A stretch of DNA of 64,000 nucleotides from Nitrospirota bacterium (GCA_963733375.1 CAVTDB010000013.1:32001-96000); one strand, 5' to 3'; positions 11,846 through 58,956 are shown, counted from the stretch's first letter. Notes: generated from the sequence alone by a model not told the origin. Numbers and translations: made by a program.

Positions 11846-11944
11846 CTACTTTTCTTTCACGTGAAAGAAAAGTAGCAAAAGAAAGCGGGGCCTTTAATTC
11901 CGGCTTTTCTTTGCCTACTTTCTTTTCACCCGAAAAGAAAGTAG
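11846..11944. repeat. A/T-rich triplex-type doublet (locus 2)
   Basis: CTAC-TTTTCTTTC-ACGT-GAAAGAAAA-GTAGC-AAAAGAAAG ... CTTTTCTTT-GCCTAC-TTTCTTTTC-ACCC-GAAAAGAAA-GTAG. Confidence 0.92.
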
Positions 11945-11945
11945 G

Positions 11946-11975
11946 TTGACAAAAAGATAATTCTGGGGCTAAGAT
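11946..11975 (+). promoter_or_regulatory. putative sigma70 promoter abutting repeat locus 2
   Basis: TTGACA 11946-11951, 18-nt spacer, TAAGAT 11970-11975. Confidence 0.5.
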
Positions 11976-11979
11976 AGTC

Positions 11980-12262
11980 ATGGTCGGAATTATCAACGTT
12001 GACTTGCGGAGAGGATTGGTTTTTCATGGCGTGGGAATGGCATATGATCGAGGAGGAGAAGGCGCTCCGGGCGCTCAAGAAGATGGTGGAAGGCGCGGCG
12101 GTAAAGCTGAAAGAGCCGACTTTAAGCGAACTGGAGGCGGTACGGCTGATGGAGATTACCCGCACATGGGTATCGAAGGTATTCCCGGAGAAACTCCGGG
12201 CTTACGACGCGGCTGAATAAGCCGCGCCTTGAGAACATCTATTACAGGAAGGCCGGCCATGA
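11980..12262 (+). CDS. hypothetical protein (frameshifted)
   Basis: ORF 11999-12220 (EEEKALRALKKMVE...VFPEKLRAYD) looks coding and appears to continue across an indel (KPRLENIYYRK). Confidence 0.45.
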
Positions 12263-12565
12263 AGGACGATAAGCTTGCGGAATCACTGGGAAGAATTGGC
12301 CGTCTCTCTCGGCGTTAAGGTCAATTACGAAAAGATTAAAAAACACACTGCGCGCCAGCCCAAAGGCGGCCTCTGCGTCGTAAATGGCGAGCCGCGCATC
12401 ATCGTGCACCGGCCCCTTGCCGCGTCCGAGAGGGTCCAGGTCCTAATCGAGTCCCTCCAGGGATACGACCTGGAAAACGTATACATGGCCCCTGAAGTCC
12501 GCCAGGCCATCGAAGGCGCCCTGCCGCTACTCCAAAGTGGAGGTAGTTATGAACAAAGACGCTGA
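12259..12565 (+). CDS. conserved hypothetical protein
   Basis: MKDDKLAES + EELAVSLGVKVNYE..KGGLCVVNGEPRIIVH..YDLENVYMAPEVRQAIE; one indel near 12290. Confidence 0.55.
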
Positions 12566-13400
12566 TATACGGGCATACAATCTCCGCGAAAACATTCCTT
12601 TTGGAAAAAGACACCCGAAATAGATGAAAAATTCCTCGACCATCATTATTTGAATCCATCAAATCCAGCTGATACGGATACCGGATCTCTTATCTCAGGC
12701 TTTTATCATCCGCTCAAAACGCAAACATGAAGGCGGGCGTCATTGGGGGATCAATTGGCGGTGTAGAAAAACTATCGAAAGTCCTTTTTAATTTTAATCC
12801 TGCTGCCGTAACACAACATTACGGAAAAGATGAAAGGGAATTACTTGGCACTATTAAAACAGAGCTAAAACCTAATGGCACAGTCAGTGAAAAACCTCGA
12901 AGCATATGGCTTAAATATTGTCGTACCATTTTAGAGGCTGCGGAGTTTTTTTTAGATTTCCATAATGACACCCGAGTTTTATGATTGGGTTAATCATTTA
13001 CTATAAAGATGAAAAATCATTAGATGCTTTGCCGATAGATTTCTTGAAAGAAAAAATTTATGGCATACGGATTTGCTCTCGCGTGTGATTTTCTTACAGG
13101 AACTTGGATTTGTTACAATATGGAAAGCCTGATGTTCAGCATAAAAGAAATATTTGAAGCATTATCTTTCGTTGAAACCAAAGTCATCGGACGACCCAGA
13201 TTTTAACAGCTGATACAACGTATTGCCAGGCAATGTCGGCGTGACTCCTTATAATGTTGATAATGCTGTTTTGGTTAATTGGAAGTGGCAAATTTTACAA
13301 ACACCCTAATATTGCGTGTAACGCGGACGCGTTGTGAGAAGGAAGGAAATATTTATCAATTATTGAGGGAAATATGATATCCAGGACAGCTTCAACTCTA
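12549..13400 (+). CDS. low-GC HhH/EndoIII-like hypothetical protein, heavily frameshifted
   Basis: Manual reassembly across indels gives LLSSAQNANMKAGVIGGSIGG, RSIWLKYCRTIL, approximately GIGFALACDFL.ELG...YGKPDV.IK, VTPYNVD.LFWLIGSGKFY. Confidence 0.5.
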
Positions 13401-13412
13401 GAAAAAGGTGGG

Positions 13413-13628
13413 ATGCCACAGACATACTCGAAGAATTATAGATTTTGCTCAACTTGCGAATTATTGGGGCGGCAATAGAACCGTTGATAATTTTGGATTC
13501 AAAAGCATCATGTTGACTCTTTAGCTATTGAAGGAAAATGTTTATTGCAAGGCGGCCCGTGGAAAGGGCAAAACAGGCAAGCGAATATGTCCTGTAATAA
13601 ATGGGAAAAATGGGCTGCACTAAAATAA
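13413..13628 (+). CDS. small Cys/Trp-rich protein (about 70 aa), not in the ORF track because of indels
   Basis: SD-like AAAGGTGG, then MPQTYSKNYRFCSTCE(Y)WGGNRTVD...EGKCLLQGGPWKGQNRQANMSCNKWEKWAALK*. Confidence 0.5.
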
Positions 13629-13746
13629 CTCGAAAACATAAAGGTCGAACAGCTCAAAGTAACTGCACAACCAGACGTAGGCAAATCCCGAAGGACAAAA
13701 TTACGCTTTCCACGCCTTTTTCCCCCTTTTCGGCTATAATTTAATA

Positions 13747-15278
13747 ATGGCCGAACTTCCACTCATACTCCCGTACGACCAGTACAACTATGAAACTGGT
13801 CGCCAACGTGCATCCGCTCGGACTGGAAAAACCCGGAACCGGCGCCGATGTATAACCTCGTGATAATCGGCGCGGGGACCGCGGGGCTTGTCACGGCGGC
13901 AATCGCGGCGGCGGTCGGGGCGAAGGTCGCGTTGATCGAGAAGCGGCTTATCGGCGGGGACTGCCTGAACCTCGGTTGTGTGCCCTCGAAGACCATAATC
14001 AGCTCGTCCAGGATTTCCCCCGAAGAGGTAAGAGAAGCCGCAAGTCACGGGGTGAATGTAATCTGCGGCGCGGAGGCGGATTTCCCGGCGGTGATGGAGC
14101 GGATGAGGCGGCTTCGGGCGCGCATAAGCCAGCACGATTCCGCCTCTCGCTTCCAGGAGATGGGCGTCGATATTTTCCTGGGCGCGGGGAAGTTCACGGG
14201 CCGCATTCGGCGTAGTGGGAGAGAGCGAATTAAAATTTAAAAAAGCGCTAATCGCGACAGGCGCGCGGCCTTTCGTGCCGCCGGTCGAGGGATTATCGGG
14301 CGTAGGATACTTAACGAACGAAAACATATTCAACCTGACCACCCGGCCCGCGCGGTTCGGGATACTGGGGGGCGGAGCTATGGGCTGCGAGATGGCGCAG
14401 GCGTTAGAGGCTGGGCTCCCAGGTGACCATCTTGCAAAATAAGAGACTGATGGAGAAGGAGGATTCCGAGGCCTCTGCCATTATCCATGGGGTTTTCCAC
14501 AAAGAAGGCGTCCGGATTGTGCTGGGAGACAAAAAAGTAACGAAGGTCGAAGTTCGCGGCAATGAAAAAATCATATTCTGGAGGGGCCGGAAGGGGCGGG
14601 AGACAGGACCGAGGAGCTTCACGTGGACGAGCTTTTAATATCAGTCGGCCGGACGCCGAACGTCAAAGGCCTGGGGCTGGAAGACGCGGGGGTGGAGTTC
14701 GACCTCCGCTCGGGGGTGAAGGTCGATGAGCATCTCCGGAGCACGAACCACGATATCTATGCCGCGGGCGACGTATGCCTGAAATATAAGTTCACCCATA
14801 CCGCCGACGCCGCCGCAAGGGTCGTTGCCGCGACGCCTTATTTTCCGCCCGCCGAAAATTCAGCACGACTTCCGTCCCCTGGTGCACGTTTACGGACCCG
14901 GAGGTGGCGCACGTCGGGCTTTGTCCGGAAGACAGCGCTTGCGATGCCGTGGAGATGGATACGTTCACGAAAGATTTCGGCGAGATCGACCGTACGGTTT
15001 TGAAGGCGAGGAAGAGGGGTTCGTCAAGATCCACGTGAAGAAGGGGACGGACAAGATCCTGGGCGCGACAATCGTGGCCAGAAACGCGGGCGACATGATA
15101 ACCGAGATCGCACTCGCCATGCACACGGAATCGGACTGAAGGAAATCTCCAGACCATCCACCCCTACCCCACCCGCGCCGAGGCCATAAAGCGCGCGGCT
15201 GACGAATATATGGCCTCAAGCCTCACTCCCGGCATGAAGAAGTGGCTCGGCAGGTGGATGGAAATGAAACGGAAGTAA
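13747..15278 (+). CDS. FAD-dependent pyridine nucleotide-disulfide oxidoreductase (LpdA/MerA-like), frameshifted
   Basis: GAGTAG, GGDCLNLGCVPSK, LIATGARP, GGGAMGCEMAQ, GRTPNV, YAAGDV, HPYPT; no C-terminal Cys-Cys pair seen. Confidence 0.85.
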
Positions 15279-15289
15279 AATATGCCGCA

Positions 15290-15799
15290 TTAAAACAGGT
15301 TCAGAAGCTCCTCGACCGCCTTCGCCTTCCTCTGCACTTCCTCCGCCATGTTCTGCTTGTAGTCCACCAGTTTAATGGCCACTTCAGTGTCGAATGCGCC
15401 TATTATCTGCGCCGCGAGGATGCCCGCGTTCTTCGCCCCGGCCTTGCCGATCGCCATCGTCGCGACGGGTACGCCGCCCGGCATCTGCGCCGTGGAGAGG
15501 AGCGAGTCCAGGCCATTTAAAGAAGAGGAATCTATGGGCACGCCGATTACCGGCAGAGTCGTCGCAGCCGCGATAAAACCGGCCAGGTGCGCCGCCCCGC
15601 CCGCGCCCGCTATGATGACTTTTAGGCCTTTGCCAGCGGCCTCGACCGCGAATTTATGCGCCTTCTCCGGCGTCCTGTGCGCGGACGCCACCGTCACCAC
15701 GGAAGGTATCTTGAACTCGTCCAATACCCTCTTCGCCTCCTGCATAACGGATAAGTCCGAGTCCGACCCCATCACTATCCCAACTAGCGGCTGTGCCAT
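15290..15799 (-). CDS. purE: N5-CAIR mutase
   Basis: VGIVMGSDSDL, SAHRTP, AGAGGAAHLAG, PVIGVP, QMPGGVPVAT; intact 169 aa. Confidence 0.97.
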   Translation of the reverse strand: MAQPLVGIVMGSDSDLSVMQEAKRVLDEFKIPSVVTVASAHRTPEKAHKFAVEAAGKGLKVIIAGAGGAAHLAGFIAAATTLPVIGVPIDSSSLNGLDSLLSTAQMPGGVPVATMAIGKAGAKNAGILAAQIIGAFDTEVAIKLVDYKQNMAEEVQRKAKAVEELLNLF

Positions 15800-15900
15800 A
15801 TCGCCTCCTGTTTTTTCTTAAGTACAGCCCATATAGCAAATACGGCCGGTTTAATAAAGTATTTTTCTTGTGCGGGGGAGGGCAGAGGATTAAAATAAGA

Positions 15901-15990
15901 TTATTTTTGGAAATTGTGGGACCAAAAACTTTTAGGTTTTTAACCCCCCGTTTTCTTTTGCTACTTTTCTTTCCCGTGAAAAAAGCGTAG
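15901..15990. repeat. A/T-rich triplex-type doublet, degenerate (locus 3)
   Basis: ACCAAAAACTTTT...TTAACCCCCCG-TTTTCTTTT-GCTAC-TTTTCTTTC-CCGT-GAAAAAAGCGTAG, 9 nt before the addB ATG. Confidence 0.75.
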
Positions 15991-15999
15991 GGACTTAAA

Positions 16000-18949
16000 A
16001 TGACACCTAATCTACATATCCTTCCCTTCGGGCCGCCCGCATGGGAGAAGCGAAAAGAAATACTTGCCGGGATTATCGCCTCGCGCCCTGGGCCCCCGTG
16101 GGATTTCCGCGATATGCTTTACCTCGTCCCGAACGAGCGCATGGTAAAGTCGGTACGCGCGCTGTTCCTTGACGCGCTCTTTGAAAAAACGGGGGCGGCC
16201 GGCTGTATCCCGCCCGGCGTCATGGCCTTGAACCGCTTCATCCAGTCACGGGTGGACGGCACTAAAACTATCTCTCCGCTGGCCAGAAAACTTCTGCTGG
16301 AGGAGGTTTGCCAGGGTATTGCCGGTGTCCCGGGGCTGGAAGACGAGGCCCTTCTGAGGTCGCTTTCAGGGCCGGTTTCAGAGGCGCTGGAAAAGGCGTA
16401 CCTTCATAATGCCGGGGACAGTCTTCTTCACGCAAGCGACAATCCGGCGCTCTTTGCCCTGGCACGCGCAAAGAAAGAGTACGAGAGGCGTCTTTCGGAA
16501 CTGGGCCTTTTGACCGGGCGCGTCTTTTGTCCCTGTGGGAGCCGAAGCCGGAAGGTTTTCCCGAATATCGCCTGATAATACTGGACGGTTTCTACGACGC
16601 CCTGCCGCACGAGCTTCGCCTTATGAAGGCGCTTTCAAGTGGCCGGACGCTCTATTTTATCCTCGAAGCGCCCGGGCTATCCGGCGGATTATCCGCCGAA
16701 AAAGGAAACCGGCGCCGCGCCCGGCGATGCCGCGACGTCAGAACTCGGTGGCGAAGGGATGCCGTACGCGGGTACAGAGCGGCTGATTAACGAGCTGTTC
16801 CCGGGCGTGGAAATAAGGCCGGATTATCCTCCCGCCGAAGAAGACGCTCAATTACTCTCCGGGGCGGTATTCCTGGGGAGGCCGCTTCGGGAGACGGTAA
16901 AGCTTTTAAAAGCCGGAAGTCCCAAGCCTCTCAATTGGCGGATTATCTCCGCCATGACTCTCGAAGACGAAGTCGCCTTTATCGCCCGCACTATAAAGGA
17001 ACGCGCACTGGCAGGAAATTTAAACCTGGATAAGACGCTGGTCATGTTCCCGGAGCCCATACGGTACCAGCACGCCTTCAAGAAAATCTTTGACGATTAC
17101 GGCATCCCGTACAGCTTCCAGGAGACGCGGCCGCTAATCGGCGAACCCCTGGCCCAGGTCTTCCTGGACCTTCTCTCCATCCCTGCCGGGGACTACCCGT
17201 TCCGCCTGATGAGGCGCGCGTTTTACTCGCCTTTAATCACGCTTGGAGAGGCGGGAAACAAGGCCCTGGAGTTCGACCGGTACGCCCGCATTGAGGGGAT
17301 TACCGGCGGGCGGCGGCGCTGGGAGGTTTTAGCCCGTGTCGCCAAATTACCTTTTACGGCCGAGCTTAGTGCGCTCCTTGATTTACTGAAGCCCCTGGAG
17401 GCGAGGGAACTGCATCCGGCAAAATGGGCGGAACTCGCATCAAGTCTGCTGGAGCGCTCCGGGATGGCATTGAAGGCATTGAATCCCCGGAACCTGTGCC
17501 GCCGATAGAGCAGCTTCAAGGGACCCTTTCCGAGCTTCGGGCGGCCCTTAAAAACCTGACCTTGCGGGTGACGCTCGGCCGCTTCATCGGGATATTAAAA
17601 GGGGCGCTTTCCGAGGTACAGGCGAAGAGGACAGCCGACGCCTTTTCAGGCGTGCGTGTGCTGGGCAGGCTGGAGGCGTTTTCGGAAGGGTTCGATACCG
17701 TCTTCATCGCCGGCCTGAACTCAGGCTCACTGCCATCGCCTGTGCGCCGTGATTTATTTTCCCTGGATGAAAAAGGGGCAGGGTCGGCATCCTTGGACGG
17801 CAAGACCCGCGACTGCCGCCTGTTCCTGGGGCTTGTCCTGGGGGCGCGGGAAGTTTACCTGTCGTACCCGAAAGAAAGCGGCGGGAAACCTTCGACCCCG
17901 TCGCCCTGGATCATGGCGCTAAGGCCGTTCGTTATCGCGGGCGCGGCGGAAGAAATTAACGATTACTGCCGCCCCTCCGGGCTGGAGGACGCGCTGGGAG
18001 AAGAAGAATTTATACGCGCGCTATCCATGAACGGATACGGGAGTGTTGCGGCCCCTGCCTCCCCCGTCCATCACCCCCGCCCCCCGTAATCCAAAAGCGG
18101 AGGTTCTCGGTTACGGAACTGGAAGATTACATCAAGTGCCCTTACAGGTACTATCACCGCTGGGTACTCCGGGATAATCCGCCGGAGGAACCGTCCGACG
18201 ACGCGGCTCCGGACGCTTCCGGCAGGGCGGTGCATGGCATACTGGCGAAGTTTTATGCGCGGCGCAGCGGGCCGGTGCGGAAAGATGAGATAGCATAGGC
18301 ATACAAGGAGCTGTCAAAGCTTGCCGATGAACAGTTTGCCGCGCTGGCCGATACCCTGGCGAACCGGGAGGCAAAACGCAAGTTCCTGGAAAAAATCGCG
18401 CCGAAGGTCCTGGCGGCGGACGCTGAACTGCCGCCCGGCACGGTAATAAAAGATGTGGAAAAGAAAATCGAGGGAGAGCTTCCCGTCAGCGACACGGAAA
18501 CAGTTACAGTCGTCGGGAAGATAGACCGTCTTGAGCTTAGCGCAGGCGGCTCGTTTGCGGTAGTGGACTACAAGACGGGCAAATATCCCGGAAAGGAAAT
18601 CCCGCTTGAGAAGGGTTTTCAGCTCCCGCTGTATGCGTACCTGCTCCGGCAATACCTGCCGGAACAAAGGCCGTCCGCATTCATTTATTACAACTTGGGC
18701 AAGGCAGGCGAGACCCGGGACATAGTATGCTACGACACCACCGCTTCACTCCGAAAAGCGGTAAACAGCAAGCAACGCAAGCGCGAAGGCGGCGGGGAAA
18801 TGGATGAGCATATCGACAGCATAGCCGAAAAAGCGTCAAAGGCCGTGCGCGGAATAATTGCCGGTGAATTTCCCAAGGCCAATAACGAGGACGAATGCAG
18901 GTACTGCGAAGTAGCAGACGCATGTCCCGGCGCGGAAGAAGAAGAGTGA
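16000..18949 (+). CDS. addB: AddB/RexB-like PD-(D/E)XK nuclease subunit with Fe-S cysteines, frameshifted
   Basis: ORFs 16000-16575, 16639-17508, 17424-18089 and 18455-18949; FSVTELEDYIKCPYRY, GKIDRLE, VVDYKTG, FQLPLYA, CRYCEVADAC; directly upstream of a UvrD-like gene. Confidence 0.8.
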
Positions 18950-18950
18950 T

Positions 18951-19064
18951 AAATCGTTACTTTTTTCGGGAAAAAGGTAACACCAAAAGACTTTTAAGTT
19001 TGTTTTTAAAGCCCACGCTTTCTTTTGCGTTACTTTTCTTTCTCGGAAAGAAAAGTAACGGTTT
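18951..19064. repeat. A/T-rich triplex-type doublet (locus 4), between addB and addA
   Basis: CGTTACTTTTTTC-GG-GAAAAAGGTAAC-ACCAAAAG ... CTTTCTTTT-GCGTTAC-TTTTCTTTC-TCG-GAAAGAAAA-GTAACGG. Confidence 0.9.
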
Positions 19065-19067
19065 GGA

Positions 19068-22368: not shown

Positions 22369-22373
22369 TTTCC

Positions 22374-22402
22374 TTTACCAAACCGGAATTTTCTGGTAAA
22401 GT
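22374..22402 (+). promoter_or_regulatory. putative gap-pgk promoter overlapping an inverted repeat
   Basis: TTTACC-17 nt-TAAAGT with TG extension; TTTACCA-N13-TGGTAAA is self-complementary. Confidence 0.45.
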
Positions 22403-22436
22403 TTTAGCTTTCTTGCCTTTTTTATCATCTTATCAT

Positions 22437-22533
22437 CTACTTTTCTTTCACGAAAAAGAAAAGTAGCAAAAGAAAACGGGACTTTAACCCCGGCTTTTCT
22501 TTGCTACTTTCTTTTCACCTGAAAAGAAAGTAG
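22437..22533. repeat. A/T-rich triplex-type doublet (locus 5), upstream of gap
   Basis: CTACTTTTCTTTC-ACGA-AAAAGAAAAGTAGC-AAAAGAAAA ... CTTTTCTTT-GCTAC-TTTCTTTTC-ACCT-GAAAAGAAA-GTAG. Confidence 0.92.
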
Positions 22534-22554
22534 GGTTTTTTTTAGTATAATTAA

Positions 22555-23601
<1,047 letters not shown>

Positions 23602-23605
23602 AATA

Positions 23606-23642
23606 CCCCCTCCCTTTGTCCCTCCCCCGCAGGCGGGGAGGG
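23606..23642. repeat. G/C-rich triplex-type repeat between gap and pgk
   Basis: CCCCCTCCC-TTTGT-CCCTCCCCC (mirror)-GCAGGC-GGGGAGGG (complement). Confidence 0.7.
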
Positions 23643-23673
23643 TCAAAAGGCGGTGATATATCCGGAGGCGCCC

Positions 23674-24876: not shown

Positions 24877-24882
24877 GAAAAG

Positions 24883-24989
24883 CCGTTACCTTTTTGGAAA
24901 AAGGTAACACCAAAAACTTTTGGGGTTAAACACCCCGGCTTTCTTTTGTGTTACTTTTCTTTCTCCCGAAAGAAAAGTAACGAGTTTAA
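24883..24989. repeat. A/T-rich triplex-type doublet (locus 6)
   Basis: CCGTTACCTTTTT-GG-AAAAAGGTAAC-ACCAAAAAC ... CTTTCTTTT-GTGTTAC-TTTTCTTTC-TCCC-GAAAGAAAA-GTAACG. Confidence 0.92.
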
Positions 24990-25038
24990 GCTTTTCGCCC
25001 CAGCAGACCTGGGGCATTTTTTTCTGGGGGACCTCGGA

Positions 25039-31685: not shown

Positions 31686-31794
31686 AACCGTTACTTTTCT
31701 TTCGGGAAAGAAAAGTAACCAAAAGAAAGCCGGACAGTTTAAAGCCCAAAAGTTTTTGGCGCTACCTTTTTCCAAAAAGGTAGCAAAGGTTTAA
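31683..31794. repeat. A/T-rich triplex-type doublet (locus 7)
   Basis: TAAAACCGTTAC-TTTTCTTTC-GG-GAAAGAAAA-GTAACC-AAAAGAAAG ... GTTTTTGG-CGCTAC-CTTTTT-CC-AAAAAG-GTAGC. Confidence 0.92.
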
Positions 31795-38641: not shown

Positions 38642-38659
38642 GGCTGCTGCCCGGGGTTG

Positions 38660-38822
38660 CTCTCCAAATGCCTGCGAGGTTAGCTGCCGGGCTCAGGCTT
38701 GATAGTACCTTATCCCTTAGAAAGAGCCCGATAAACCGGGCAGCTTGAAAAAGGGAATTCGCCCCGTAAACTTTGGGTCCCCCGCATCCTTCCGGGTTTG
38801 CCCGGAAGAATTTCGGCCGCAA
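38660..38822 (-). ncRNA. c-di-AMP (ydaO-yuaA) riboswitch
   Basis: Minus strand GGCCGAAA..GGATGCGGGGGACCCA..GGGGCGAATTCCC..GGGATAAGGT..GCCTGAGCCCGGCAGCTAACCTCGCAGGC matches the ydaO consensus blocks; downstream gene is KimA-like. Confidence 0.88.
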
Positions 38823-38840
38823 TTATTTAAAAACGGGATT

Positions 38841-38950: not shown

Positions 38951-40263
38951 ATGACTGAGAAAATATTGACTGTAATCGGCGGCGGGCTTGCCGGGTCGGA
39001 GGCGGCCTGGGCCGCGGCCAGACGCGGGATAAAGGTGCGGCTTTTCGAGATGCGGCCCGGGACCATGACCCCGGCGCACAAGACGGGGCATCTGGCGGAG
39101 CTGGTATGCTCAAACTCGCTAAGGTCCCTGGACCTGCATAACGCGGTCGGCCTTCTAAAGGAAGAGATGCGGAGCCTCGGCTCGCTCGTTATGGAGGCGG
39201 CGGACAGGACTGCCGTCCCCGCCGGTAGCGCCCTTGCCGTGGACCGGGAGGCCTTCGGCAGATATATAACCGACGCAATCCTTGGCCATCCCGGTATAGA
39301 GGTAATCAGGCAGGAGATAGCCCAGGTCCCGGAGCCTGTCTCGGTAATCGCCACGGGTCCTCTGACGTCCGACAAGATGGCGGACGCAATAGGCCGCGCT
39401 TACCGGGACGGAGCACCTGCATTTCTATGACGCCATCGCGCCCATAATCGACGCCGATTCCGTTGATATGGATATTGCCTTTCGTGCCTCGCGCTACGGC
39501 AAGGGCGGGGACGACTACGTCAACTGCCCGATGACAAAGGAGCAGTACGACGCCTTTTACGACGCGCTCTCTACAGCCGAGAAGGCCCCGGTGCGCGAGT
39601 TCGAGAACATGCGCTGCTTCGAGGGCTGCATGCCCATAGAGACGATGGCGGAGCGCGGCCGGGAGACGCTGGCGCACGGCCCGATGAAGCCGGTGGGGAT
39701 TACAGACCCTAAAACGGGCGGACGGCCTTACGCGGTCGTCCAGCTGCGGGCCGAGGACGCGGAGCGGACGGCGTATAATATCGTCGGTTTCCAGACCCGG
39801 CTTAAATGGCCAGAACAGGCAAGGGTATTCAGGATGATACCGGGGCTTCAAAACGTGAAATTTATAAGGTACGGGAGCCTGCACCGGAACACGTTCATAA
39901 ACGGCCCATTGTTCCTTGAGCCTACCCTTGAGATGAAGGGGCGGCCGGGTCTTTTCTTCGCCGGGCAGGTATCGGGCGTGGAAGGGTACGTCGAGTCCTC
40001 CGCGATGGGCATACTCGCGGGTATTAACGCGGCGCGTCTTATAAAAGGGCTGGCCCTGGTGACTCCGCCGGAGACGACGGCGCACGGGGCGCTTATCACG
40101 CACCTGACCAAGACGGAGCCCGGCCGCTTCCAGCCGACGAACGTGATTTTTTCCCTTTTCCCGCCGCTCGACGTGAAGGTGAAGAAAAAAGAGGAGCGGC
40201 GTGAGCTGTTGGTGAAAAGGGCGCTTAGCGGATCTGGAAGCGTGGAAGAACAACCTGGACTGA
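38951..40263 (+). CDS. trmFO: tRNA m5U54 methyltransferase TrmFO (Gid), frameshifted
   Basis: [60 protein letters not shown]. Confidence 0.95.
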
Positions 40264-40280
40264 TTCCGGGAGGTTTACAA

Positions 40281-41708
40281 ATGTTTGAAGAACTCGATGA
40301 ACTAAAAAAACACCTGGACAGCCTGCGCCCGATAGACGCGGACAAGATGGCGGCCATGCAGGAAAAGCTTAAAATAGATTGGACATACAACAGCAACGCA
40401 ATAGAAGGAAACAAGCTGTCTTTGCAGGAAAAGGCATTCTTTTTGAGGGAAGGTCTTACCTAGAAGGGAAAACGACTCTCGGAATTTCTGGAAGCAAAGG
40501 ACCATGTCGAGGCCATTTCGTTCCTGGAAGAGGTAGTACAGGAAAAGAAGCCTTTAACAGAAAGGCTGATAAAAGATTTACACGCAATAGTTATGCAGGA
40601 CAACAAGTATGTATGGATAGGCTCGCCCGAAAATAGGATAAAGAAAAGGATTGAATCTGGAAATTACAAGTACGACAACAACGATGTGGTGAAACTCGGC
40701 GGCACCATACATTATTACAAGGACTATTTGCAGGTTCAGGGAGAGATGGAGGCCTTGATAAAATGGTATCAGGAAAACAAAGTTCATAGGGTAGAGCTGG
40801 CGGCCAGGCTCGACGATAAGCTAGTGGCAATACATCCTTTTACGGAAGGTAATGGGCGAGTGTAGAGGCTAGTTATGAACATGATATTGATGCAGGAAGG
40901 CTATGAACGAGCAATAATACGAAACGAAGACAAGATGGAATACTAACAGGCGTTGGACCTCGCGGACAAGGGCGACTACGGTACTTTTATTGCAATAGTC
41001 GAGAGGGAAGATTACAGGACGATGAAGATGGTCATAGACGTAATAGAAGGCAGTGAGGCATTAGGAAAAGAAGATCTGAAACGCATGATAGAAGGTTTTT
41101 AGGAGGAAGTTACAAAACTGGATAAGGATATTGGTGTTATATCTAAGAATGTTGATGATAATATTAGAAAGAAAAACATAGAAAATATTTTATCTTATTT
41201 AGAGGAAACTGCTAAAGGCATAATAGATGAAAACGCAACTAAAGAAAGGATTTTTTTTATAGAATCTCGTAATAATTAGAAATAGTTGGTTGAATCATTT
41301 CTTACACTTTTTTGTTTAAATCAAAATATAAAACAGATATGGTGGGAGAAAGAATCATGGGAAGATAAAGGTCATTTTAAGTGTACAATAGAAGAAGGTT
41401 GCGGTTTTATGATAGTTTTGTAGAGCAGAAGAATGTATATACGCTCCTCGACGCTCCTTTTTGGAGTAATTCCTCGAAAGTATAAATGTATTTTAGTTGC
41501 TTTTTCAAAAGTATCAGGTTTTTTAAGTGACAGTGAGAGTGAGATTATTGGCAAAGATATAAAAGAAAAACACATTGAATTGGGGAATGTTTGGGGTGAT
41601 TATGATAAAAAAGTTCTCGAAGAATTTTTCGTCGATGTGTTTAAAACTTTTATTAAAACTATAAAAAAAGAAATAGAAATAAGAAGGCATATAGCATCAA
41701 ATGACTGA
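40281..41708 (+). CDS. Fic family protein (class II) with low-GC C-terminal extension; several in-frame stops (error or pseudogene)
   Basis: [11 protein letters not shown] inhibitory motif and [16 protein letters not shown] Fic motif; in-frame TAG at 40461 and 40863, with further stops downstream. Confidence 0.75.
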
Positions 41709-42603
41709 TTATCTTTCAGAGTTCTTGAACTACCTGCGCTACGAGAGAGGCGCGTCGGAGAACACCGTCGTCAGCTATGAGAACGACCTCCGGCAGTTCG
41801 TCCTTCACCTGAAAGGTTCGGGCGATGCGGAGCCGGACCTCTTAACGGTGGATAACCTGGACGTGCGGGGGTTTCTCGCGTCTTTGGTGAAGCAGGGACT
41901 TAAAAAATCGTCGGCCCAGAGGAAGCTCGCCGGCATAAGGAGTTTCTACCGCTATCTTTTCCGCGAGGGCTTAATCGAGAAGAACCCGGCGAAGGTCGTG
42001 GCGACGCCAAGGAAGGAAAAATCCCAGCCGTCCGTGCTATCGGTGGACGACGCGGTGATGCTTGTCGAAGCCCCGCGCGGGGATACGCTGGACGGCCTTC
42101 GCGACCGGGCTATACTTGAGATATTCTACTCGGCGGGCGTAAGGATATCGGAGCTTCAGGGTCTTAACCGGGAGCAGGTGGACCTGCCTCAGGGTTTGGC
42201 CAGGGTGACTGGAAAGGGAAATAAGGAGCGGTTCGTGCCGCTTGGGGCGAAGGCGGTTGCCGCTATATCCGCGTATATTTCCGCGTTAGACGCGGAGAAC
42301 AAGGTTGACATCTCGGCCCCGGACGTACCCCTGTTCCTGAACAAGTACAGCCTTCGGCTGTCCGTGCGGGGCGTGCGGCGGGTCGTGATGAAATACGTCG
42401 GCGAAAAACTTATACGGGGTAAGGTCTCGCCGCATACGCTCCGGCATACCTTCGCCACGCACCTGCTCGGAGCGGGCGCGGACCTCCGGTCGATCCAGGA
42501 GATGCTGGGCCATGTGTCGCTCTCCACGACGCAGAAGTACACGCACCTGGACCTGGAGAAGCTGATGAACGTTTACGACAAAGCCCATCCGAGGGCGAAA
42601 TAG
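41701..42603 (+). CDS. xerC: tyrosine recombinase XerC
   Basis: RDRAILEIFYSAGVRISEL, GKGNKER, PHTLRHTFATHLL, QEMLGH..LSTTQKYT; trmFO-xerC-hslVU context. Confidence 0.92.
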   Translation: MTDYLSEFLNYLRYERGASENTVVSYENDLRQFVLHLKGSGDAEPDLLTVDNLDVRGFLASLVKQGLKKSSAQRKLAGIRSFYRYLFREGLIEKNPAKVVATPRKEKSQPSVLSVDDAVMLVEAPRGDTLDGLRDRAILEIFYSAGVRISELQGLNREQVDLPQGLARVTGKGNKERFVPLGAKAVAAISAYISALDAENKVDISAPDVPLFLNKYSLRLSVRGVRRVVMKYVGEKLIRGKVSPHTLRHTFATHLLGAGADLRSIQEMLGHVSLSTTQKYTHLDLEKLMNVYDKAHPRAK

Positions 42604-42608: not shown

Positions 42609-42702
42609 CCGCTACCTTTTTGGAAAAAGGTAGCACCAAAAACTTTTAGACTTTAACCCCCGCTTTCTTTTGCTACTTTTCTTTCCCGTGAAAGAAAAGT
42701 AG
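42609..42702. repeat. A/T-rich triplex-type doublet (locus 8)
   Basis: CCGCTACCTTTTT-GG-AAAAAGGTAGC-ACCAAAAAC ... CTTTCTTTT-GCTAC-TTTTCTTTC-CCGT-GAAAGAAAA-GTAG. Confidence 0.92.
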
Positions 42703-44623: not shown

Positions 44624-44730
44624 AACCGTTACCTTTTTGTAAAAAGGTAACACCAAAAACTTTTGGGCTGAACACCCCCGCTTTCTTTTGTGTTACTTTT
44701 CTTTCCCGCGAAAGAAAAGTAACGGTTTTA
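44621..44730. repeat. A/T-rich triplex-type doublet (locus 9) with perfect 12-bp terminal inverted repeats
   Basis: TAAAACCGTTAC...GTAACGGTTTTA; begins on the hslU stop codon. Confidence 0.93.
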
Positions 44731-47086: not shown

Positions 47087-47235
47087 AAAACCGCACTTTT
47101 CTTTGCGGAAAGAAAAGCGCCCAAAAGAAACGAGAGTAACTTCCTTATGGCAGGTCTAACCCCAAAAGGGGGTTTTTTTGTCCGGTTTCTCTTTGCGTTA
47201 CTTTCTCTTTCCCCAAAGAGAAAGTAACGGTTTAA
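47087..47235. repeat. A/T-rich triplex-type doublet (locus 10) with a variant module and an internal hairpin
   Basis: CAC-TTTTCTTT-GCGG-AAAGAAAA-GCGCCC-AAAAGAAA ... TTTCTCTTT-GCGTTAC-TTTCTCTTT-CCCC-AAAGAGAAA-GTAACGGTTTAA-ATG. Confidence 0.9.
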
Positions 47236-49617: not shown

Positions 49618-49644
49618 TGCCGTCTCGGTCATTAGAGTAACGCC

Positions 49645-49683
49645 TCCCCCATCCCCCTCTTAGCCTACGAGGGGGATGGGGGA
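49645..49683. repeat. G/C-rich 15-bp inverted repeat (REP/triplex-type)
   Basis: TCCCCCATCCCCCTC-TTAGCCTAC-GAGGGGGATGGGGGA. Confidence 0.7.
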
Positions 49684-49701
49684 CTTCGGAAAGGATTTTG
49701 G

Positions 49702-50644: not shown

Positions 50645-52565
50645 TCTTTCTCGCAACGAATTAATTTTGATTGATTTTGTTATACTTATAATATAAAATA
50701 GTTAGTTTCACCGAAGGAAGGCCGTAATTTGGACGGGTTGATCCCCGATGAGGCGCTCGACAGGGTACGTTCCGCGACGGATATCGTGGAGCTTGTATCG
50801 CAGCACGTAACGCTGAAACATACCGGCGCGAACTATCTGGGGCTTTGCCCGTTCCATCAGGAGAAGACGCCGTCATTCACCGTCAGCCCGGCTAAGCAGA
50901 TATTCCACTGCTTCGGATGCGGGGCGGGCGGGGACGCCGTCGGCTTCATGATGCGCCAGGGGAACTACAGCTTCCCGGAGGCGGTGCGCTTCCTTGCGGA
51001 CCGGGCGGGGATAGAACTGCCGGAGCGGGCGGAGCAGACATCCCACGAAGACTGGGAGAAGCTTTTCGCGGCGAACGAAGAGGCGGCGAAATTCTTTCAG
51101 GACAGGCTCTGGAATTCAGCCGACGGGAAAAAGGCGCTGGGCTACCTGAAAGACAGGGGTATGCCTGACGACTCCGCGAAGGCGTTTGAAATAGGATATT
51201 CACCTGCGTCGTGGGACGGGTTGACCGGCCATTTGAAGGGCCTGGGGCTCGATTTTAAAATACTGGAAAAAGCAGGTCTTATAGTAAAAAAAGCGGACGG
51301 CGCCGGTTACTACGACCGTTTCAGGGGCCGCCTGATGTTCCCGATAAGGGACATTAAAGACAGGGTCATAGGCTTCGGCGGCAGGGCGATGATTAAGGAC
51401 GAGATGCCGAAGTACCTGAATTCGCCGGATACGCCGCTTTTCAAGAAGGGCGAGACGCTTTACGGCATCGGGAGTTGCCAAGGAAGCGATAAGAAAGCGG
51501 GATTTCGCCATAGTGGTGGAAGGCTACATGGACGCCATCGCCTGCCACAGGGCGGGCGTTGCAAACGCCGTAGCCACGCTCGGCACCGCGCTCACGCCCG
51601 GACATTTGCGGCTGCTGTCGCGTTTTTCAAAGAACGTGTTGCTGGTTTTCGACGCGGACGATGCCGGTCTAAAAGCGGCGCAGCGCTCTCTGGACGTTTT
51701 TTTAAGCTCCACGCCGAAGATGGTCGGCAAAGGTGGCGCTACTGCCGGAAGGGGACGACCCGGACAGCCTGCTCATCCGGGAAGGGGCCGAGGCCCTGAA
51801 GGAGAGCCTTAAAGGGCGCGAAAAGTTGCTGGAGTTTGTAATCAAACGCGAGGCCGCGGGCGTCTTGGATATAGACGCCAAAATCAAGGCGGTAGGTACC
51901 TTGACCGGAATCCTCGCGCGGGTGGACGACGCGGTCGAGCGCAGCTATTACGTAAAGATGGCGGCGTCCGAGCTTAAAGTCGATGAGTCGGCGGTCAAAG
52001 AAGAGCTTGAGAAAAAGACCGCGCAGGTTCGGCAAGTACGGGCATTTACCGTTCCTCGCAAGGCGCGGGGGCTGCGGGGCTTAAGGGCAAAAATTTCGCC
52101 TCTCTGGACAAGATCGAGGCGGGGCTTATCCAGTCGGCGCTCAGGGACACGGACGCGGCGCTTTATGCGGCGGATAACTTGGGCGCGGAGGATTTTTCGG
52201 ACGAGCGGCTGAAAAAAGCCGCCGATGGTATTATTTAAGATGGCCCTGGCCGGGGAGCCGGTAGAGGTCCCGAAGCTCCTTGACGCGCTCCAGGACGAGG
52301 ATGCCAGGCGTGCGGTACTTGAGCTGTCCGTACGGGATACCGTTTCGGAAGACGCCCTGGCATACGCGGAGGGCGCGGTCCTCATGCTTTTAGAGGCCCG
52401 GTATAAGAAGATAGTTGAGGAAGTGCACGTCCTGCTTCAGAGGGCGGGCGCGCTGGGCGAGCCGGAGGCGGTAAAGGAAATTTCGGATTTCCGCATGAAT
52501 ATGATCAAGGCGCTTTCGAAGAAAGATTTTGAACTTTTAAATACATTGCAGAAGGAGCTGGCCGA

Positions 52566-54391
<1,826 letters not shown>

Positions 54392-54392
<1 letters not shown>

Positions 54393-55726
54393 TGGCCGAC
54401 GTAATACCGTTTCGGGGAGTAAGGTACAACCATTCGTCAAAATTATCGAAGCTTGTCGCGCCGCCCTATGACGTAATCTCGCCGCAGTACAGGCAGGAAC
54501 TCTACGACCGGGACCCTCATAACGTCGTCCGGATAGATTTCGGCATGCCCGAGGAGGGCGACTCCGCGGACAACAACCAGTACACGCGCGCGGCGAAAAG
54601 CCTGAAGCGGTGGATCGGAGACGGGGTCCTGCGGCGCGAAGAGAAGCCCGCGCTGTACCTCTACGAAGTGGAGTACGAGACCCCGGCGGGCGAGAAGAAG
54701 TCCATGCGCGGCTTCATCTGTCTTCTTCGGCTGGAGGAGTGGGACAAGGGCATAGTCCTCCCGCATGAAGGCACTCTGAAGGGGCCCAAGGCGGACCGGT
54801 TCGAGCTATTAAAATCCGCTTCCGCCGCCGCGAGCCAGGTGTTCTCGCTGTACTCGGACCCGGAAAAAAAGATATCGAAGGCGTTCGAGTCCGCCGCGGC
54901 TAAGCCCCCTTCCGGGGAGGCGACCGACGACGACGGCTCCGTGCACAGGATCTGGGTCGTGACAGACCCGGAGATAATCAAGGCGGTGCAAAAGGCCATG
55001 GCGGACAAGAAGGTTTTCATTGCCGACGGCCATCACCGTTACGAGACGGCGCTTGGCTACCGCGACTACAGGAGAAGCGAGGCCGCCGCATGGACGGGCG
55101 GCGAGGGCTTTAATTTCATCCCCATGTTCCTCTCCAACATGGACGAGGACGGCCTTACGGTACTGCCTACCCATCGGCTGATAAGCGACGCGGGCGAGCT
55201 TACGCTGGACTCCGTGCTGGAGCGGTCCTCGCATTATTTCAAAGTAAAGCGGTTCTCGTTCCTCACGGAAAACGAGTATGACGCGCGGTCGGAGTTCCTT
55301 CGTTCACTTTCGGAAGCGGGAAAGAATTCCCACTCCTTCGGCTTCTGCTGGGACAGCGCCCCATGCTATTACCTCCTTACCCTTAAGGACCTGGACGACG
55401 TCGCGAAGGCGCAGTGGTGCCCGCGCTCGGATACCTATTGCAGCCTGGACGTCACGATACTTCATTCGCTTATAGTGGAGCGCGTGCTTGGCATCGACAC
55501 GGAGAAGATTGCCGTGTCCCAGCCGGTGCAGTTCGAGAAAAACGCCGACAGGGCGATAGAGCGGGTCGCGGCCGGCGAGTTCGCCATGTGCTTCCTGCTG
55601 AACCCGACCAAGGTGCAGGAGGTGAAGGAGGTCGCGCTGGCCCATGAGATAATGCCGCAGAAATCGACTTACTTTTATCCGAAGCTCCTGACCGGCCTGG
55701 TGATAGCGGATTTGAACCATATATAA
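54392..55726 (+). CDS. DUF1015 family protein
   Basis: PFRG, APPYDVI, PHEGT, IADGHHRYET, PTHR, MPQKSTYFYPK. Confidence 0.9.
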
Positions 55727-55838
55727 ACCGTTACTTTCTTTTCGAGAAAAGAAAGTAACACAAAGAAAAGCTGGGGTTAAAGTCTCGCTTTCTTTTGTGT
55801 TACTTTTCTTTCCCGCGAAAGAAAAGTAACGACTTTAA
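55724..55838. repeat. A/T-rich triplex-type doublet (locus 11)
   Basis: TAAACCGTTAC-TTTCTTTTC-GA-GAAAAGAAA-GTAACAC-AAAGAAAAG ... CTTTCTTTT-GTGTTAC-TTTTCTTTC-CCGC-GAAAGAAAA-GTAACG. Confidence 0.93.
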
Positions 55839-55848
55839 GAATTAAAAA

Positions 55849-56307
55849 ATGCCTAAACTTACCACCATCGCCGGGATAATCAAGGAAGTCCTGAAGGCGC
55901 GGGGCCTGGGAAGCGGGGATACGCTCTCTAAGCTCCGGGGTAAATGGGCAAACGCTGTGGGAGGGAAAATCGCACAGCACGCACAGCCTCAGATGATCAG
56001 AGAGGGGCGGCTCACCTTGACCGTTGACAGCCCCGCCTGGATGTCCCAGCTCTACCATGCTCTCCCCCGAGATTATAGAAAAAATAAACGCGGCGCTTGA
56101 AGAGGGCGCGGTCCGGGAACTGAAGTTCTGCCTGGGTACGCCCGCAAAGAATGAAAAGAGAAAAGAAGGCGGCTCCCATAAAGAAGCGTGAGATTTCGCC
56201 CGAGGAGAAAGACGCCATAGAGGCGCGCCACGGCGAAAATTGGGGACAAGGAGCTTCGGTCCTCCGCAAAGAAAATGCTGTCCAAATCATGCAGGAGGGT
56301 GAAGTAA
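55849..56307 (+). CDS. DUF721/DciA-like protein, frameshifted
   Basis: WANAVGGKIAQHAQP..GRLTLTVDSPAWMSQL; reassembled tail EIIEKINAAL...IGDKELR. Confidence 0.75.
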
Positions 56308-56994
56308 TGGCCTGCGACTGCAAGAACTGCATCGTCAGGGGCCTCACTATTTTTTCCGGCCTCGGCATAAGCGAGCTTGAGAAGGTCGGGACGCTGATAT
56401 ACCTGAAAAGCTTCCGCCGCAAGAAAGTAATCTTCCTCGAAGACACGCCAAGCAATACCGTTTACGTCCTGAAGACCGGCACGGTCAAGTGCTATAAATC
56501 GCTGCCCGACGGCCGCGAGCTGATAATCAGCATCCTCACCCCCGGCGACATGCTGGGCTTCGACTCCCTCTACGAAGACCACTACTCAAATACCGCCGAG
56601 GCCATACAGGACACGGAGCTTTGCTGCATCCGAAAAAAGGACCTGGTGGACCTCCTTCAAGAGCAGCCCCGAGGTCGGCGTCCGGTTCATCAAGAAGATG
56701 AACAAGGAGCTTCAACTCGCGCAGGAGCGCATCCGGGACCTGGGCCTGAAGGACGCGCGTGAGCGTGTGGCGACTCTTCTGATGACGCTCTTCATCTCTC
56801 GCGGAGAGGGCCAGGTGCCCAAGTTCACCCTGTCCCGGCAGGAGATCTCCGAGATGGCGGGCGTCGCCCAGGAAACGGTGATAAGGATAATTTCCGAATT
56901 CAAATCGGACGGGCTGATTAAATCGGAAGGCAAAAACATCGTAGTGCTGAAGCCGGATGAACTGCGGAAGACGGCAGGGATATTTGAGATATAA
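56307..56994 (+). CDS. Crp/Fnr family regulator with N-terminal Cys cluster, one frameshift
   Basis: MACDCKNC, cNMP-binding fold (GTVK, PGDMLG, TAEA..TELCCI), HTH LSRQEISEMAGVAQETVIR. Confidence 0.88.
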
Positions 56995-56997
56995 TTT

Positions 56998-57097
56998 CTT
57001 CTTTTCTTTTACGGAAAAGAAAAGAAGCAAAAGAAAACGGGGCTAATTTAAGTCCGGCTTTCTTTTGCTACTTTTCTTTCACCCGAAAGAAAAGTAG
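56998..57097. repeat. A/T-rich triplex-type doublet (locus 12)
   Basis: CTTC-TTTTCTTTT-ACGG-AAAAGAAAA-GAAGC-AAAAGAAAA ... CTTTCTTTT-GCTAC-TTTTCTTTC-ACCC-GAAAGAAAA-GTAG(GAGG). Confidence 0.92.
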
Positions 57098-57104
57098 GAG
57101 GTTT

Positions 57105-57912
57105 ATGAAAGAACTGACAGTTGCAAAACGCGCCGCAAAAGAGGCGGGAAAAATATTGCTCTCCTACATGGGGAAGCTGGAGCATGTCGAGTATAAGGGC
57201 CGGCGCGACCCGGTAAGCGAGGCGGACAAGGCGTCCGAGAAGCGGGTCGCGGAGATAATCAGGGAGGCGTTTCCGGCGCACGGATTTCTGGCGGAGGAGA
57301 AGACCTCGTGGACAGGCCAGGACAAAAGCGCCCGCTGGATTGTGGACCCGCTGGACGGCACGGTTAATTATGCGCACGGCTATCCGCACTTCTCGGTCTC
57401 CATCGCGTTCGAGAGGGACGGAGAAGTTCAGGCGGGCGTGGTATTCGACCCGGTGAAGAAAGACCTGTTTTCCGCCGTCAAAGGCGGCGGCGCTTTTTTG
57501 AACAACACGCCGATACGGGTATCAAAGACGAGGACGTTGATAAAGTCGCTTATCGTGACCGGCTTCCCTTACGACATCGAGAGCCGCCCGAAGGAAATCC
57601 TCGAACCGTTTAACCGGATGGTCCTGGCGTCGCAAGGGGTACGGCGTGACGGCTCCGCCGCACTGAACCTGTGCTACCTTGCCGTGCGGCCGCTTCGACG
57701 GCTACTGGGAAATGGGGCTTAAGCCCTGGGACACCGCGGCGGGAATGCTCATCCTGCGCGAGGCGGGCGGAGTAGTGACGGACTTCAAAGGCGAGCCGTT
57801 CAAGCCGGAGATGCAGGAGATACTGGCGAGCAACGGAAAGATACAGAAAGAAATGATGGAGGACTCTGGAAAAAAAGGGGCACTAAAAATTACTCCCTCG
57901 GCCAGACCTTGA
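57105..57912 (+). CDS. suhB: inositol monophosphatase family protein, frameshifted
   Basis: [42 protein letters not shown]. Confidence 0.9.
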
Positions 57913-58799
57913 ACTTCTCCACCATCCGTATCGGATTATAAGACTGCTTGGATTTTTTCAGGTTCGGCTCGCCCAGGTCCTGCTCGCGGTTCACGAATTC
58001 GATATCCGGGAACTCCTGCTTTAAGAACTCGCTCGAAATATATTGATACAGCCCCGAGTATTCCTGGTTCGCTTTCTCCACGTGCACGACGACCATTTCC
58101 TCGTTTAAAAGCTCGCCCAGCGACAGCGCCTCGACAACGCCGTTTATAAGGACTACGCCGCCGATGGTGGAGAGGTCTTTCAGGTGGTCCAGCGCGTGCT
58201 GCGTCGCCTCCGCCTCGCCGAAAGTGGACGGTATGTTTACGGAGCATTTCTCGCGGCACCAGCGATCGACCAGGTCCTTTGCCTGCGGGACAAGCTCCGG
58301 CGTGAGCCTTCTGTATTCCGGGTCATACCTCTTTAGGAATCGGTTCAGCAGGTTCTTCTTGTCGTGGAATTTCCTGCCGGAGAGCGAGATGAGTTCGGCC
58401 GTGCTGTAAACGTAATCGCTGTCGTCCTGGCTCAGTTCGTATTTATATTTAGGGTCCCCCTCGATATATTTTTTGATGAATTCCGCTGATGCCAGGTTGA
58501 CCACGGGCAACTCGTCATCTCTCCCGCATGAAATCCATCTGACTGTTCATCGTTTCCGGGATTTTATTATCGCCGACGGGCGGGAAGAAGTAATATTCCC
58601 CCTGGTAGGACTTTGCGTAGAAGAGGAGGTTGCCGTTAAGAGTGCTGATTTTATAATCGTGGACGTGCTTGAACATGAAGAGGTTCGTGAAGCAAAGCTC
58701 CGAGACCTCCGGCCTGAGGGCGCGGAATATCGCCTCCACCGGCTCCCGGTCGGAAAGCTCAATAGGGCGGAACGCTGGAAATTTCGGGAAGTCGGCCAT
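57890..58799 (-). CDS. DUF2156 (aminoacyl-transferase/MprF C-terminal-like) protein, frameshifted
   Basis: [53 protein letters not shown]. Confidence 0.85.
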
Positions 58800-58826
58800 T
58801 GAAGAAATTATAACACCAAAACCCTT

Positions 58827-58956
58827 CTTACTTTTCTTTCGCGAAAAAGAAAAGAAACAAAAGAAAACGGGGCTGAAAAACAATTTATCGGGTTTAAACA
58901 GTCCGGCTTTTCTTTGTGTTACTTTCTTTTCACCTGAAAAGAAAGTAACGACTTTA
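58827..58956. repeat. A/T-rich triplex-type doublet (locus 13)
   Basis: CTTAC-TTTTCTTTC-GCGA-AAAAGAAAA-GAAAC-AAAAGAAAA ... CTTTTCTTT-GTGTTAC-TTTCTTTTC-ACCT-GAAAAGAAA-GTAACG. Confidence 0.9.

Follow-up and report, generated by a model that had tools for sequence, protein, structure and literature searches.

Why should intergenic repeats come as inverted pairs whose two halves differ from each other? This question is raised by a 64,000-nt stretch of DNA from a Nitrospirota bacterium (GCA_963733375.1 CAVTDB010000013.1:32001-96000; hereafter the window), in which hairpin modules with a purine tail recur, the loci at 11,846-58,956 being shown. The original prediction described 13 such loci and took the two modules of each doublet to be different variants of one triplex-type unit. 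All 13 were found in place: 12 have the layout hairpin and purine tail, spacer, pyrimidine tail and hairpin, and the one at 10790 is a lone module. We followed the modules through the genome that holds the window (G000; 2.4 Mb, 81% complete) and two congeners, G001 (97% complete) and G002 (94% complete); pairing in G002 was counted on one 412-kb contig. In G000 and on the G002 contig, that a module does not pair with its own type is a near-absolute rule.

Read on the strand that carries the purine tail, a module consists of a basal stem strand of 4-5 nt, a pyrimidine arm, a loop of 2-6 nt, the purine arm with the second basal stem strand, a linker of 1-2 nt and the tail. The arm motif occurred 29 times in the window against 1.6 times expected from shuffles. 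Basal stem strands include GTTAC, CTAC, GTAC and GTTC among other variants, and the opposite arm changes to match. Type A has the arm G-A3-G-A4-G and the tail A4-G-A3-G, and type B is type A reversed (arm A4-G-A3, tail A3-G-A4). In the rarer types, the run lengths of arm and tail are 4-4 and 4-4 (E), 3-1-3 and 3-1-3 (D), and 5-3 and 3-5 (F). In type C, an A5GG arm is followed by the tail CC-A5-C, and the mirror relation is limited to the arm's A5 run. Arms and tails hardly vary, whereas loops, linkers and spacers do, with 20 kinds of loop among 79 A modules.

Among the 155 non-C modules with a recognisable tail, the run-length code of the tail was the exact mirror of that of the arm in 126 (3-4 with 4-3, n = 58; 4-3 with 3-4, n = 57; 4-4 with 4-4, n = 8; 3-1-3 with 3-1-3, n = 2; 5-3 with 3-5, n = 1). 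A further 14 mismatched solely because a purine run reaches into the basal stem, and none of the 155 joined a 3-4 arm to a 3-4 tail or a 4-3 arm to a 4-3 tail. A scan that assumed no sequence found 332 purine-arm hairpins in the genome; where the core was asymmetric (n = 320), a mirror tail with at most one mismatch followed 149 times and a direct repeat 32 times. The same geometry recurs in a sister genus with a G3-A-G4 arm and a G4-A-G3 tail. Since a mirror repeat has no Watson-Crick meaning, a triplex reading is natural: one DNA strand of a module could fold as a purine-motif triplex (Y-R-RH), and the opposite strand, or RNA, as a pyrimidine-motif triplex (H-Y-R). The strongest evidence for such a predicted triplex rule is the recurrence of mirror geometry in six unrelated asymmetric block sequences. 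Copy numbers are weaker evidence, because arm and tail would stay matched in the absence of selection if gene conversion acted on modules as wholes. The intrastrand triplex (ITxF) definition of Holder (2015; PMC4666352) comprises Y, R and RH blocks of 6-15 nt, consecutive on one strand, with at most one mismatch, loops of 1-6 nt and a minimum of six triplets. Types A, B, D, E and F, in which the tail mirrors the purine arm as a predicted intrastrand triplex would require, fall within it (their blocks measure 9-10 nt and their first loop 2-6 nt, and basal stem strand plus linker form a connector of 5-6 nt). Type C, with at most five possible triplets, lies under the minimum and thus outside the definition.

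G000 contains 253 tailed modules, of which 202 form 101 adjacent pairs and 51 are unpaired, many of these being halves of disrupted doublets. All 101 pairs are tail-to-tail, a layout from which the proposed strand symmetry follows directly; the median gap between the hairpins is 39 nt, and TTAA occurs in 75 of the 101 spacers against 6.1 ± 2.3 in shuffled spacers. When module types were shuffled 20,000 times, random pairing gave 29.9 ± 4.4 homotypic pairs, with a minimum of 13. Only two are present, one B+B and one C+C, and the other 99 are heterotypic (A+C 43, A+B 23, B+C 19, C+E 5, and rarer mixtures). On the G002 contig, one of 45 pairs is homotypic against 13.1 ± 2.8 expected. All four pairs found in another genus are heterotypic, a sample too small for a test. 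Pairing genome-wide is thus strongly non-random and heterotypic, as anticipated from the window. The accompanying claim that every doublet includes an A-type module is true of the window only: across the genome, type A occurs in 71 of the 101 doublets (B+C, C+E and others lack it) and type C in 69. Unpaired modules had the R orientation in 14 and the Y orientation in 21 cases in G000, and in 16 and 9 cases in other phyla, neither of which is decisive. Two further candidate features of the doublets were rejected. A conserved third hairpin in the central spacer was too weak (perfect stems of ≥ 4 bp in 40 of 101 spacers against 20.4 ± 3.6 after shuffling), and co-variation of basal stem variants between partners was marginal (shared in 68 of 101 against 63.3 ± 2.1).

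What a homotypic pair would look like was simulated in silico by joining two natural halves of one type. The longest perfect run between the halves then had a median of 14-17 nt (maximum 53), and 88-94% of the base pairs in the minimum-free-energy (MFE) structure linked the two halves, so that such a pair is predicted to fold as one long hairpin. In real A+C and B+C doublets, the run between the halves is 6-7 nt, and 26% of the MFE pairs lie between them; in A+B doublets these values are 9 nt and 54%. Under plain RNA folding, both hairpins are kept in 91% of A+C and 84% of B+C doublets with the tails free. For A+B, the predicted structure joins the two tails by 6.9 bp on average, and the share of doublets with both hairpins intact is only 52%. 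The proposal that mismatched partners avoid one long palindrome is therefore physically sound by predicted folds, though clear-cut only for pairs containing C, A+B being half-palindromic. The companion idea, that the mismatch stops the tails from cross-pairing and lets each half fold alone, holds, in predicted folds, for A+C and B+C and not for A+B. Likewise, one purine-motif and one pyrimidine-motif fold per strand would be available in full to about a third of the doublets, the rest containing type C with only five triplets.

Long near-perfect palindromes are deleted in bacteria. With moderate confidence, we take the doublets to be a lineage-specific, A/T-rich family within the known class of repeats with intrastrand triplex potential (BoxC/PIT/TM), structure-prone DNA homogenised by recombination in which heterotypy acts as a survival filter. 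Sitting in short intergenic spacers, usually on a TAA stop, the doublets behave as structure-prone non-coding DNA whose copies are gained, lost, inverted and overwritten, on this account through recombination or gene conversion. A homotypic pair would be a near-perfect palindrome of ~100 bp, apt to form one long hairpin or cruciform and to be deleted or collapsed; unlike partners would hold perfect complementarity between the halves to ~6-13 bp and persist. Deletion of homotypic pairs would then be the cause of heterotypy.

The loci in the window, with their state in the congeners, are as follows; doublets are listed without a strand.

10770-10819, minus strand: single type A module, with pyrimidine tail and then hairpin on the plus strand; no partner; present in G002, region different in G001.
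11846-11945: A+B doublet; one hybrid hairpin in G001, a 508-aa open reading frame (ORF) at the site in G002.
15901-15990: doublet of decayed C and decayed A; present in G002 with the C half intact; absent from G001, where stop and start codons lie ~10 nt apart.
18956-19060: doublet of hybrid C and A; A+C, in inverted order, within the same flanks in G002; absent from G001.
22437-22533: A+B doublet upstream of the gap gene; orthologous site empty in G001 and G002, without a clean target duplication.
23600-23670, minus strand: G/C-rich triplex-type module of a second family, with C-rich arm, G-rich arm and mirror G-rich tail (mirror 8/8); within a 68-nt stretch missing at the orthologous G002 site.
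24885-24981: C+A doublet; present in G001 and G002, in G001 with a mini-insert in the loop of the A half.
31690-31784: A+C doublet; same types in G002.
42611-42702: C+A doublet by the type classifier; orthologous site compared with G002.
44628-44723: C+A doublet; upstream TAA stop within the outer flank; A half decayed by internal deletions in G002.
47093-47229: A+D doublet with a long spacer; D arm A3-G-A-G-A3 with an identical, mirror-symmetric tail.
55730-55830: B+A doublet by the type classifier; orthologous site compared with G002.
56995-57097: E+A doublet; E is the A' of the original prediction, with arm A4-G-A4 and tail A4-G-A4.
58828-58949: doublet of decayed A/E and B with a long spacer, typed as A+B by the classifier; orthologous site compared with G002.

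The classifier reproduced the module types of the original prediction for ten doublets (11846, 22437, 58828, 55730, 24885, 42611, 44628, 31690, 47093 and 56995); in the other two, at 15901 and 18951, the C halves are decayed. No Rfam family matched the repeat loci at gathering score, the sole match in the window being a c-di-AMP riboswitch (ydaO/yuaA leader; 38655-38828, minus strand, 71.3 bits).

Comparison of congeners showed that doublets turn over quickly. Of 41 doublets whose flanks could be placed on the G002 contig, 19 had the same types in the same order, 8 had switched type, 8 were absent (< 45 nt left) and 6 were partial. In five of the eight type switches, A or B had been replaced by the other throughout, the tail changing along with both arms, and the order was reversed within the same flanks at two of the partial G002 sites and at the 18951 locus. 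At 11846, G001 has a single hybrid hairpin, in which the left arm of A is fused to the loop and right arm of B, a collapse that resembles the 'palindromic effect' of partial deletion described, together with variation of loci between close relatives, by Holder (2015; PMC4666352). The ORF that occupies this place in G002 (L025 16454-17980, minus strand) is found in neither G000 nor G001. At three sites (C13:29006, C15:15533 and C24:5365), the partner of C is B with the loop CCGT in G000 and A with the loop ACCC in G002, which looks like subfamily-wide concerted evolution by gene conversion. The doublets combine basal stem variants in at least 40 distinct ways, and the A variants GTTC and GGTACC occur with both B and C partners. 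Because of these combinations, the type switches at fixed sites and the reversals within unchanged flanks, heterotypy is probably not mere descent. Furthermore, with switching this frequent, A+B doublets would be expected to turn into A+A or B+B over time if nothing eliminated the homotypic products; 23 A+B doublets stand against one homotypic doublet. This is an equilibrium argument and not a measured rate.

Intrastrand triplex motifs have been described in thousands of prokaryotic genomes (Holder, 2015; PMC4666352). The best studied of them, BoxC of E. coli (the PIT element or TM_ECO), is assigned there to the class II purine motifs (Y-R-RH), its complementary strand being a pyrimidine motif. 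In its consensus, a 9-nt C-rich stem is followed by two G-rich stems of 9 nt each; the first loop has 3-6 nt and the second 3 nt. Five of its 18 sites are inverted pairs, always type A with type B in the terms of that paper, which cites comparable findings by Hoyne et al. (2000). From the coordinates in its Table 1 and the sequence, we found that the pair in the hrpB-mrcB spacer is tail-to-tail with a 16-nt spacer and that its partners are unlike in both loops. The family studied here shares with BoxC/PIT/TM_ECO the succession of pyrimidine arm, purine arm and mirror third strand, the dispersed intergenic location, loops less conserved than stems, inverted tail-to-tail pairs that combine two types, and variation between close relatives. 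The heterotypic tail-to-tail layout is thus the rediscovery of a known class feature in a new lineage, in which heterotypy is close to absolute and probably under active maintenance.

The differences from that family are several. TM_ECO is G/C-rich, whereas the present family is A/T-rich (A3-G-A4 and similar) and, having other blocks, does not fit the TM_ECO pattern proper, which G/C-rich copies in G000 fit or nearly fit (e.g. C8:20323 and C25:85565). Modules are about ten times as dense, with 253 in 2.4 Mb where MG1655 has 23, and most of them are paired (202 of 253; in E. coli, 10 of 23). What distinguishes partners here is the triplex blocks, A and B being mirror images and C a third kind; in E. 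coli it is the loops. In addition, a non-purine basal stem of 4-5 bp is interposed between triplex region and tail. Three things are new: an A/T-rich system of three types with ~100 doublets, the placement of doublets against TAA stops, and a fast turnover between congeners, in which doublets are lost, inverted, switched between A and B in concert or collapsed into a hybrid hairpin. Literature searches turned up nothing on heterotypic doublets that are A/T-rich, nor on this lineage, although the supplements of Holder (2015; Fig. S6 and Tables S1-S13) may hold A/T-rich cases. With ~100 doublets, three module types, a near-absolute rule and congeners that display loss, inversion, collapse and concerted switching, G000 is a favourable case in which two long-standing questions become testable: whether the mirror tail matters, that is, whether the triplex is real, and why paired motifs are always different.

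Likeness to other repeat systems is partial. Bacterial interspersed mosaic elements (BIMEs) are pairs of repetitive extragenic palindromes (REPs) of types Y and Z in enterobacteria and bind IHF and gyrase. The early comparison with BIME and REPIN organisation is apt: the doublets share with BIMEs the inverted, alternating, non-identical palindromic units in intergenic and often intercistronic positions, and with REPINs the predominance of the doublet (101 against 51 unpaired modules) and the restriction to a lineage. They lack the REP-like G/C stem with its GTAG tag, no REP-associated tyrosine transposase (RAYT) was found in the three genomes of the genus, and REPs for their part lack the mirror tail; their halves are of different types and not two copies of one REP. 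Purine arm, 5-6 nt and tail together make a homopurine/homopyrimidine mirror repeat as in H-DNA. Here, however, the arms are only 9-10 nt long and are combined with an inverted repeat, so that a single strand can fold back twice and a supercoiled duplex is not required. The H-Y-R strand has the topology of the MALAT1 and PAN element for nuclear expression (ENE) triple helices (Hoogsteen U-rich strand, Watson-Crick U-rich strand, A-rich 3' strand), but the modules are much shorter, bacterial, and known as DNA repeats from sequence alone.

Beyond G000, 9 of the 11 family members examined carry module A with its tail, and all 12 genomes of the order have hairpins in which a purine arm is followed by a purine tail; none of 29 genomes from other families of the phylum had an exact match. 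Among the matches listed, an identical A module of 36-40 nt also occurs in metagenome-assembled genomes of Clostridia/Oscillospiraceae, Victivallaceae, Methylomirabilota and Patescibacteria, besides Nitrospirota. The Clostridia/Oscillospiraceae assemblies and Butyricicoccus porcorum provide examples (L077 1493-1740, L091, L105 and L093 1950-1990); in L093, a TGA stop codon forms part of the basal stem. The loci from other phyla, selected by the A pattern, are mostly single; their five tail-to-tail pairs are four A+A and one A with another type, the partners being unlike in basal stem and loop. Common to E. coli, Clostridia and G000 is that paired partners are never identical and that perfect complementarity between the halves is about one block long.

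The doublets are closely tied to genes. Among the 98 doublets flanked by two ORFs, the neighbours are co-directional in 74, convergent in 15 and divergent in 9 cases, against 64%, 18% and 18% for the intergenic background. In co-directional settings, the doublet begins a median of 11 nt past the stop (mode 3-4 nt) and ends a median of 30 nt ahead of the next start, distances that are approximate because genes were called by a simple longest-ORF heuristic. The outer flanks are inverted repeats with the consensus (T)AAAACC adjoining the hairpin, and this conserved flank provides the stop codon: TAA is the stop of 48 of the 60 genes that end no more than 20 nt from a doublet, compared with 46% of genes in the whole genome. 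With respect to the direction of transcription, neither order of a heterotypic doublet was clearly preferred (20 C>A and 11 A>C; 10 B>A and 7 A>B). Because the doublets sit on stop codons, an influence on mRNA ends can be tested. The sequencing runs listed were DNA metagenomes in which the genome has a small share, with no RNA run among them, a result that has no bearing on expression.

This setting invites a role in RNA. Doublets in operon transcripts might set the stability of the upstream cistron, as REPs or MALAT1/ENE do, if the downstream module, in either orientation, folded as a U.A-U / C+.G-C triple helix (H-Y-R) and blocked 3'-exonucleases. The co-directional neighbours and the distances to stop and start agree with this, as does the lack of orientation bias, which a strand-symmetric device predicts. 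An isolated C among runs of T is optimal for the pyrimidine motif. The A/T-rich blocks, with an isolated C among T runs, suit this motif, which, according to Holder (2015; PMC4666352), RNA can form, whereas the purine motif it does not. We nevertheless think the RNA role unlikely: type C has only U5, G/C-rich sister modules carry T opposite A in the tail and so follow the purine motif only, and earlier work cited in the same paper found neither promoter nor terminator activity in E. coli PIT elements, nor any effect on RNA polymerase. There is a small chance that the doublet is a strand-symmetric device of both RNA and single-stranded DNA, in which the 3' module would form a miniature MALAT1-like U.A-U/C+.G-C triple helix capping the upstream mRNA after its TAA, and the partners would differ so as to fold separately. 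If true, this would be a bacterial, orientation-independent triple-helix stabiliser of mRNA spread as a repeat.

We regard it as improbable that the doublet is a mobile element resembling miniature inverted-repeat transposable elements or REPINs, copied by an enzyme acting in trans, with heterotypy inherited from a few heterotypic master copies. Such an element would account for presence or absence varying between congeners (8 of 41 absent in G002), the inverted (T)AAAACC flanks, the REPIN-like excess of doublets over unpaired modules and the identical A module in distant phyla. However, halves re-assort and types switch at fixed sites, so pairing is not frozen by descent, and comparison of filled with empty sites revealed no consistent target-site duplication: sites showed replacement, kept remnants or overlapped at most by TAA(A). 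A REPIN/RAYT system was rejected, since the Y1 transposase (PF01797) had no match in G000, G001 or G002, while the same search matched 6 of 14 control genomes.

The near-invariance of arms and tails beside variable loops, linkers and spacers might also mean that a nucleoid or topology protein recognises them, in the way that IHF and gyrase bind BIMEs, and that it needs two unlike half-sites; the heterotypic inverted layout recalls the Y/Z pairs of BIMEs. A two-fold symmetric protein, though, reads inverted and not mirror repeats, the unrelated A/T-rich and G/C-rich families have mirror geometry alone in common, and we know of no candidate protein, which together leave a protein-binding array quite improbable. 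That the doublets are bidirectional intrinsic terminators is very improbable indeed: a spacer hairpin with a T-rich tail was flagged as terminator-like in some doublets (e.g. 11886, 22492 and 24920), and the genes on either side of A modules in other phyla are mostly convergent (20 cases, with 5 divergent), but terminator-like matches in the region are not in excess (30 against 28.1 in shuffles), a canonical G/C-rich terminator stands directly after the 24885 doublet (24997-25015), module stems are A/T-rich with the T-run 5' of the hairpin, a spacer stem of ≥ 4 bp is present in only 40 of 101 doublets, and E. coli PIT elements lack terminator activity (cited in PMC4666352).

Several points weigh against the survival-filter reading as well. 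In the account of Holder (2015; PMC4666352), the TM_ECO triplex was stable on isolated single strands in vitro, whereas none formed in duplex DNA and in vivo dimethyl sulphate footprinting gave no protection. A+B doublets, half-palindromic in predicted folds, are yet not depleted (23 against ~24.5 expected from type frequencies), and the B+B and the C+C doublet persist in G000. Type C, with at most five triplets, is present in more than half of all doublets (69 of 101). A paired basal stem of 4-5 bp would leave 1-2 linker bases to join the tail to the triplex region, which we reason is a tight geometry, and the match of arm and tail would be preserved by whole-module gene conversion without selection for a triplex. 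Finally, this reading does not account for the origin of copies at new sites, and empty sites show no consistent target-site duplication.

G/C-rich BoxC-like modules coexist with the A/T-rich family in G000, the one at 23600-23670 in the window being joined by ~14 further copies. Opposite A, their mirror G-rich tail carries either A or T, a degeneracy that the reverse-Hoogsteen code, as given by Holder (2015; PMC4666352), permits and that simple duplication would not generate. A third hairpin family (~8 copies, e.g. C6:56572, C7:14500, C9:78342 and C26:224358) has the purine arm AAGAGGGGG, a G5-rich tail, which follows the purine-motif code in part, and the conserved motif GTTATGA.

The mini-insert is a repeat of ~36-40 nt whose core starts with CTGTCCAGAGCG and ends with GACAG, with 34 full copies in G000. 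Nine copies lie in A or B modules, either exactly within the loop or where the purine arm starts, and two in loops of another hairpin family; several are self-nested or tandem. The copy in the A loop of the 24885 locus is present in G001 and in neither G000 nor G002, and is thus an insertion polymorphism. The mini-insert is reminiscent of insertion sequence elements that target REP loops. Two segments of the window, 40227-41729 (1.5 kb) and 61938-62305 (0.37 kb), are missing at the syntenic place in G002, and the second of them holds a mini-insert at 62255-62295 (C13:94264).

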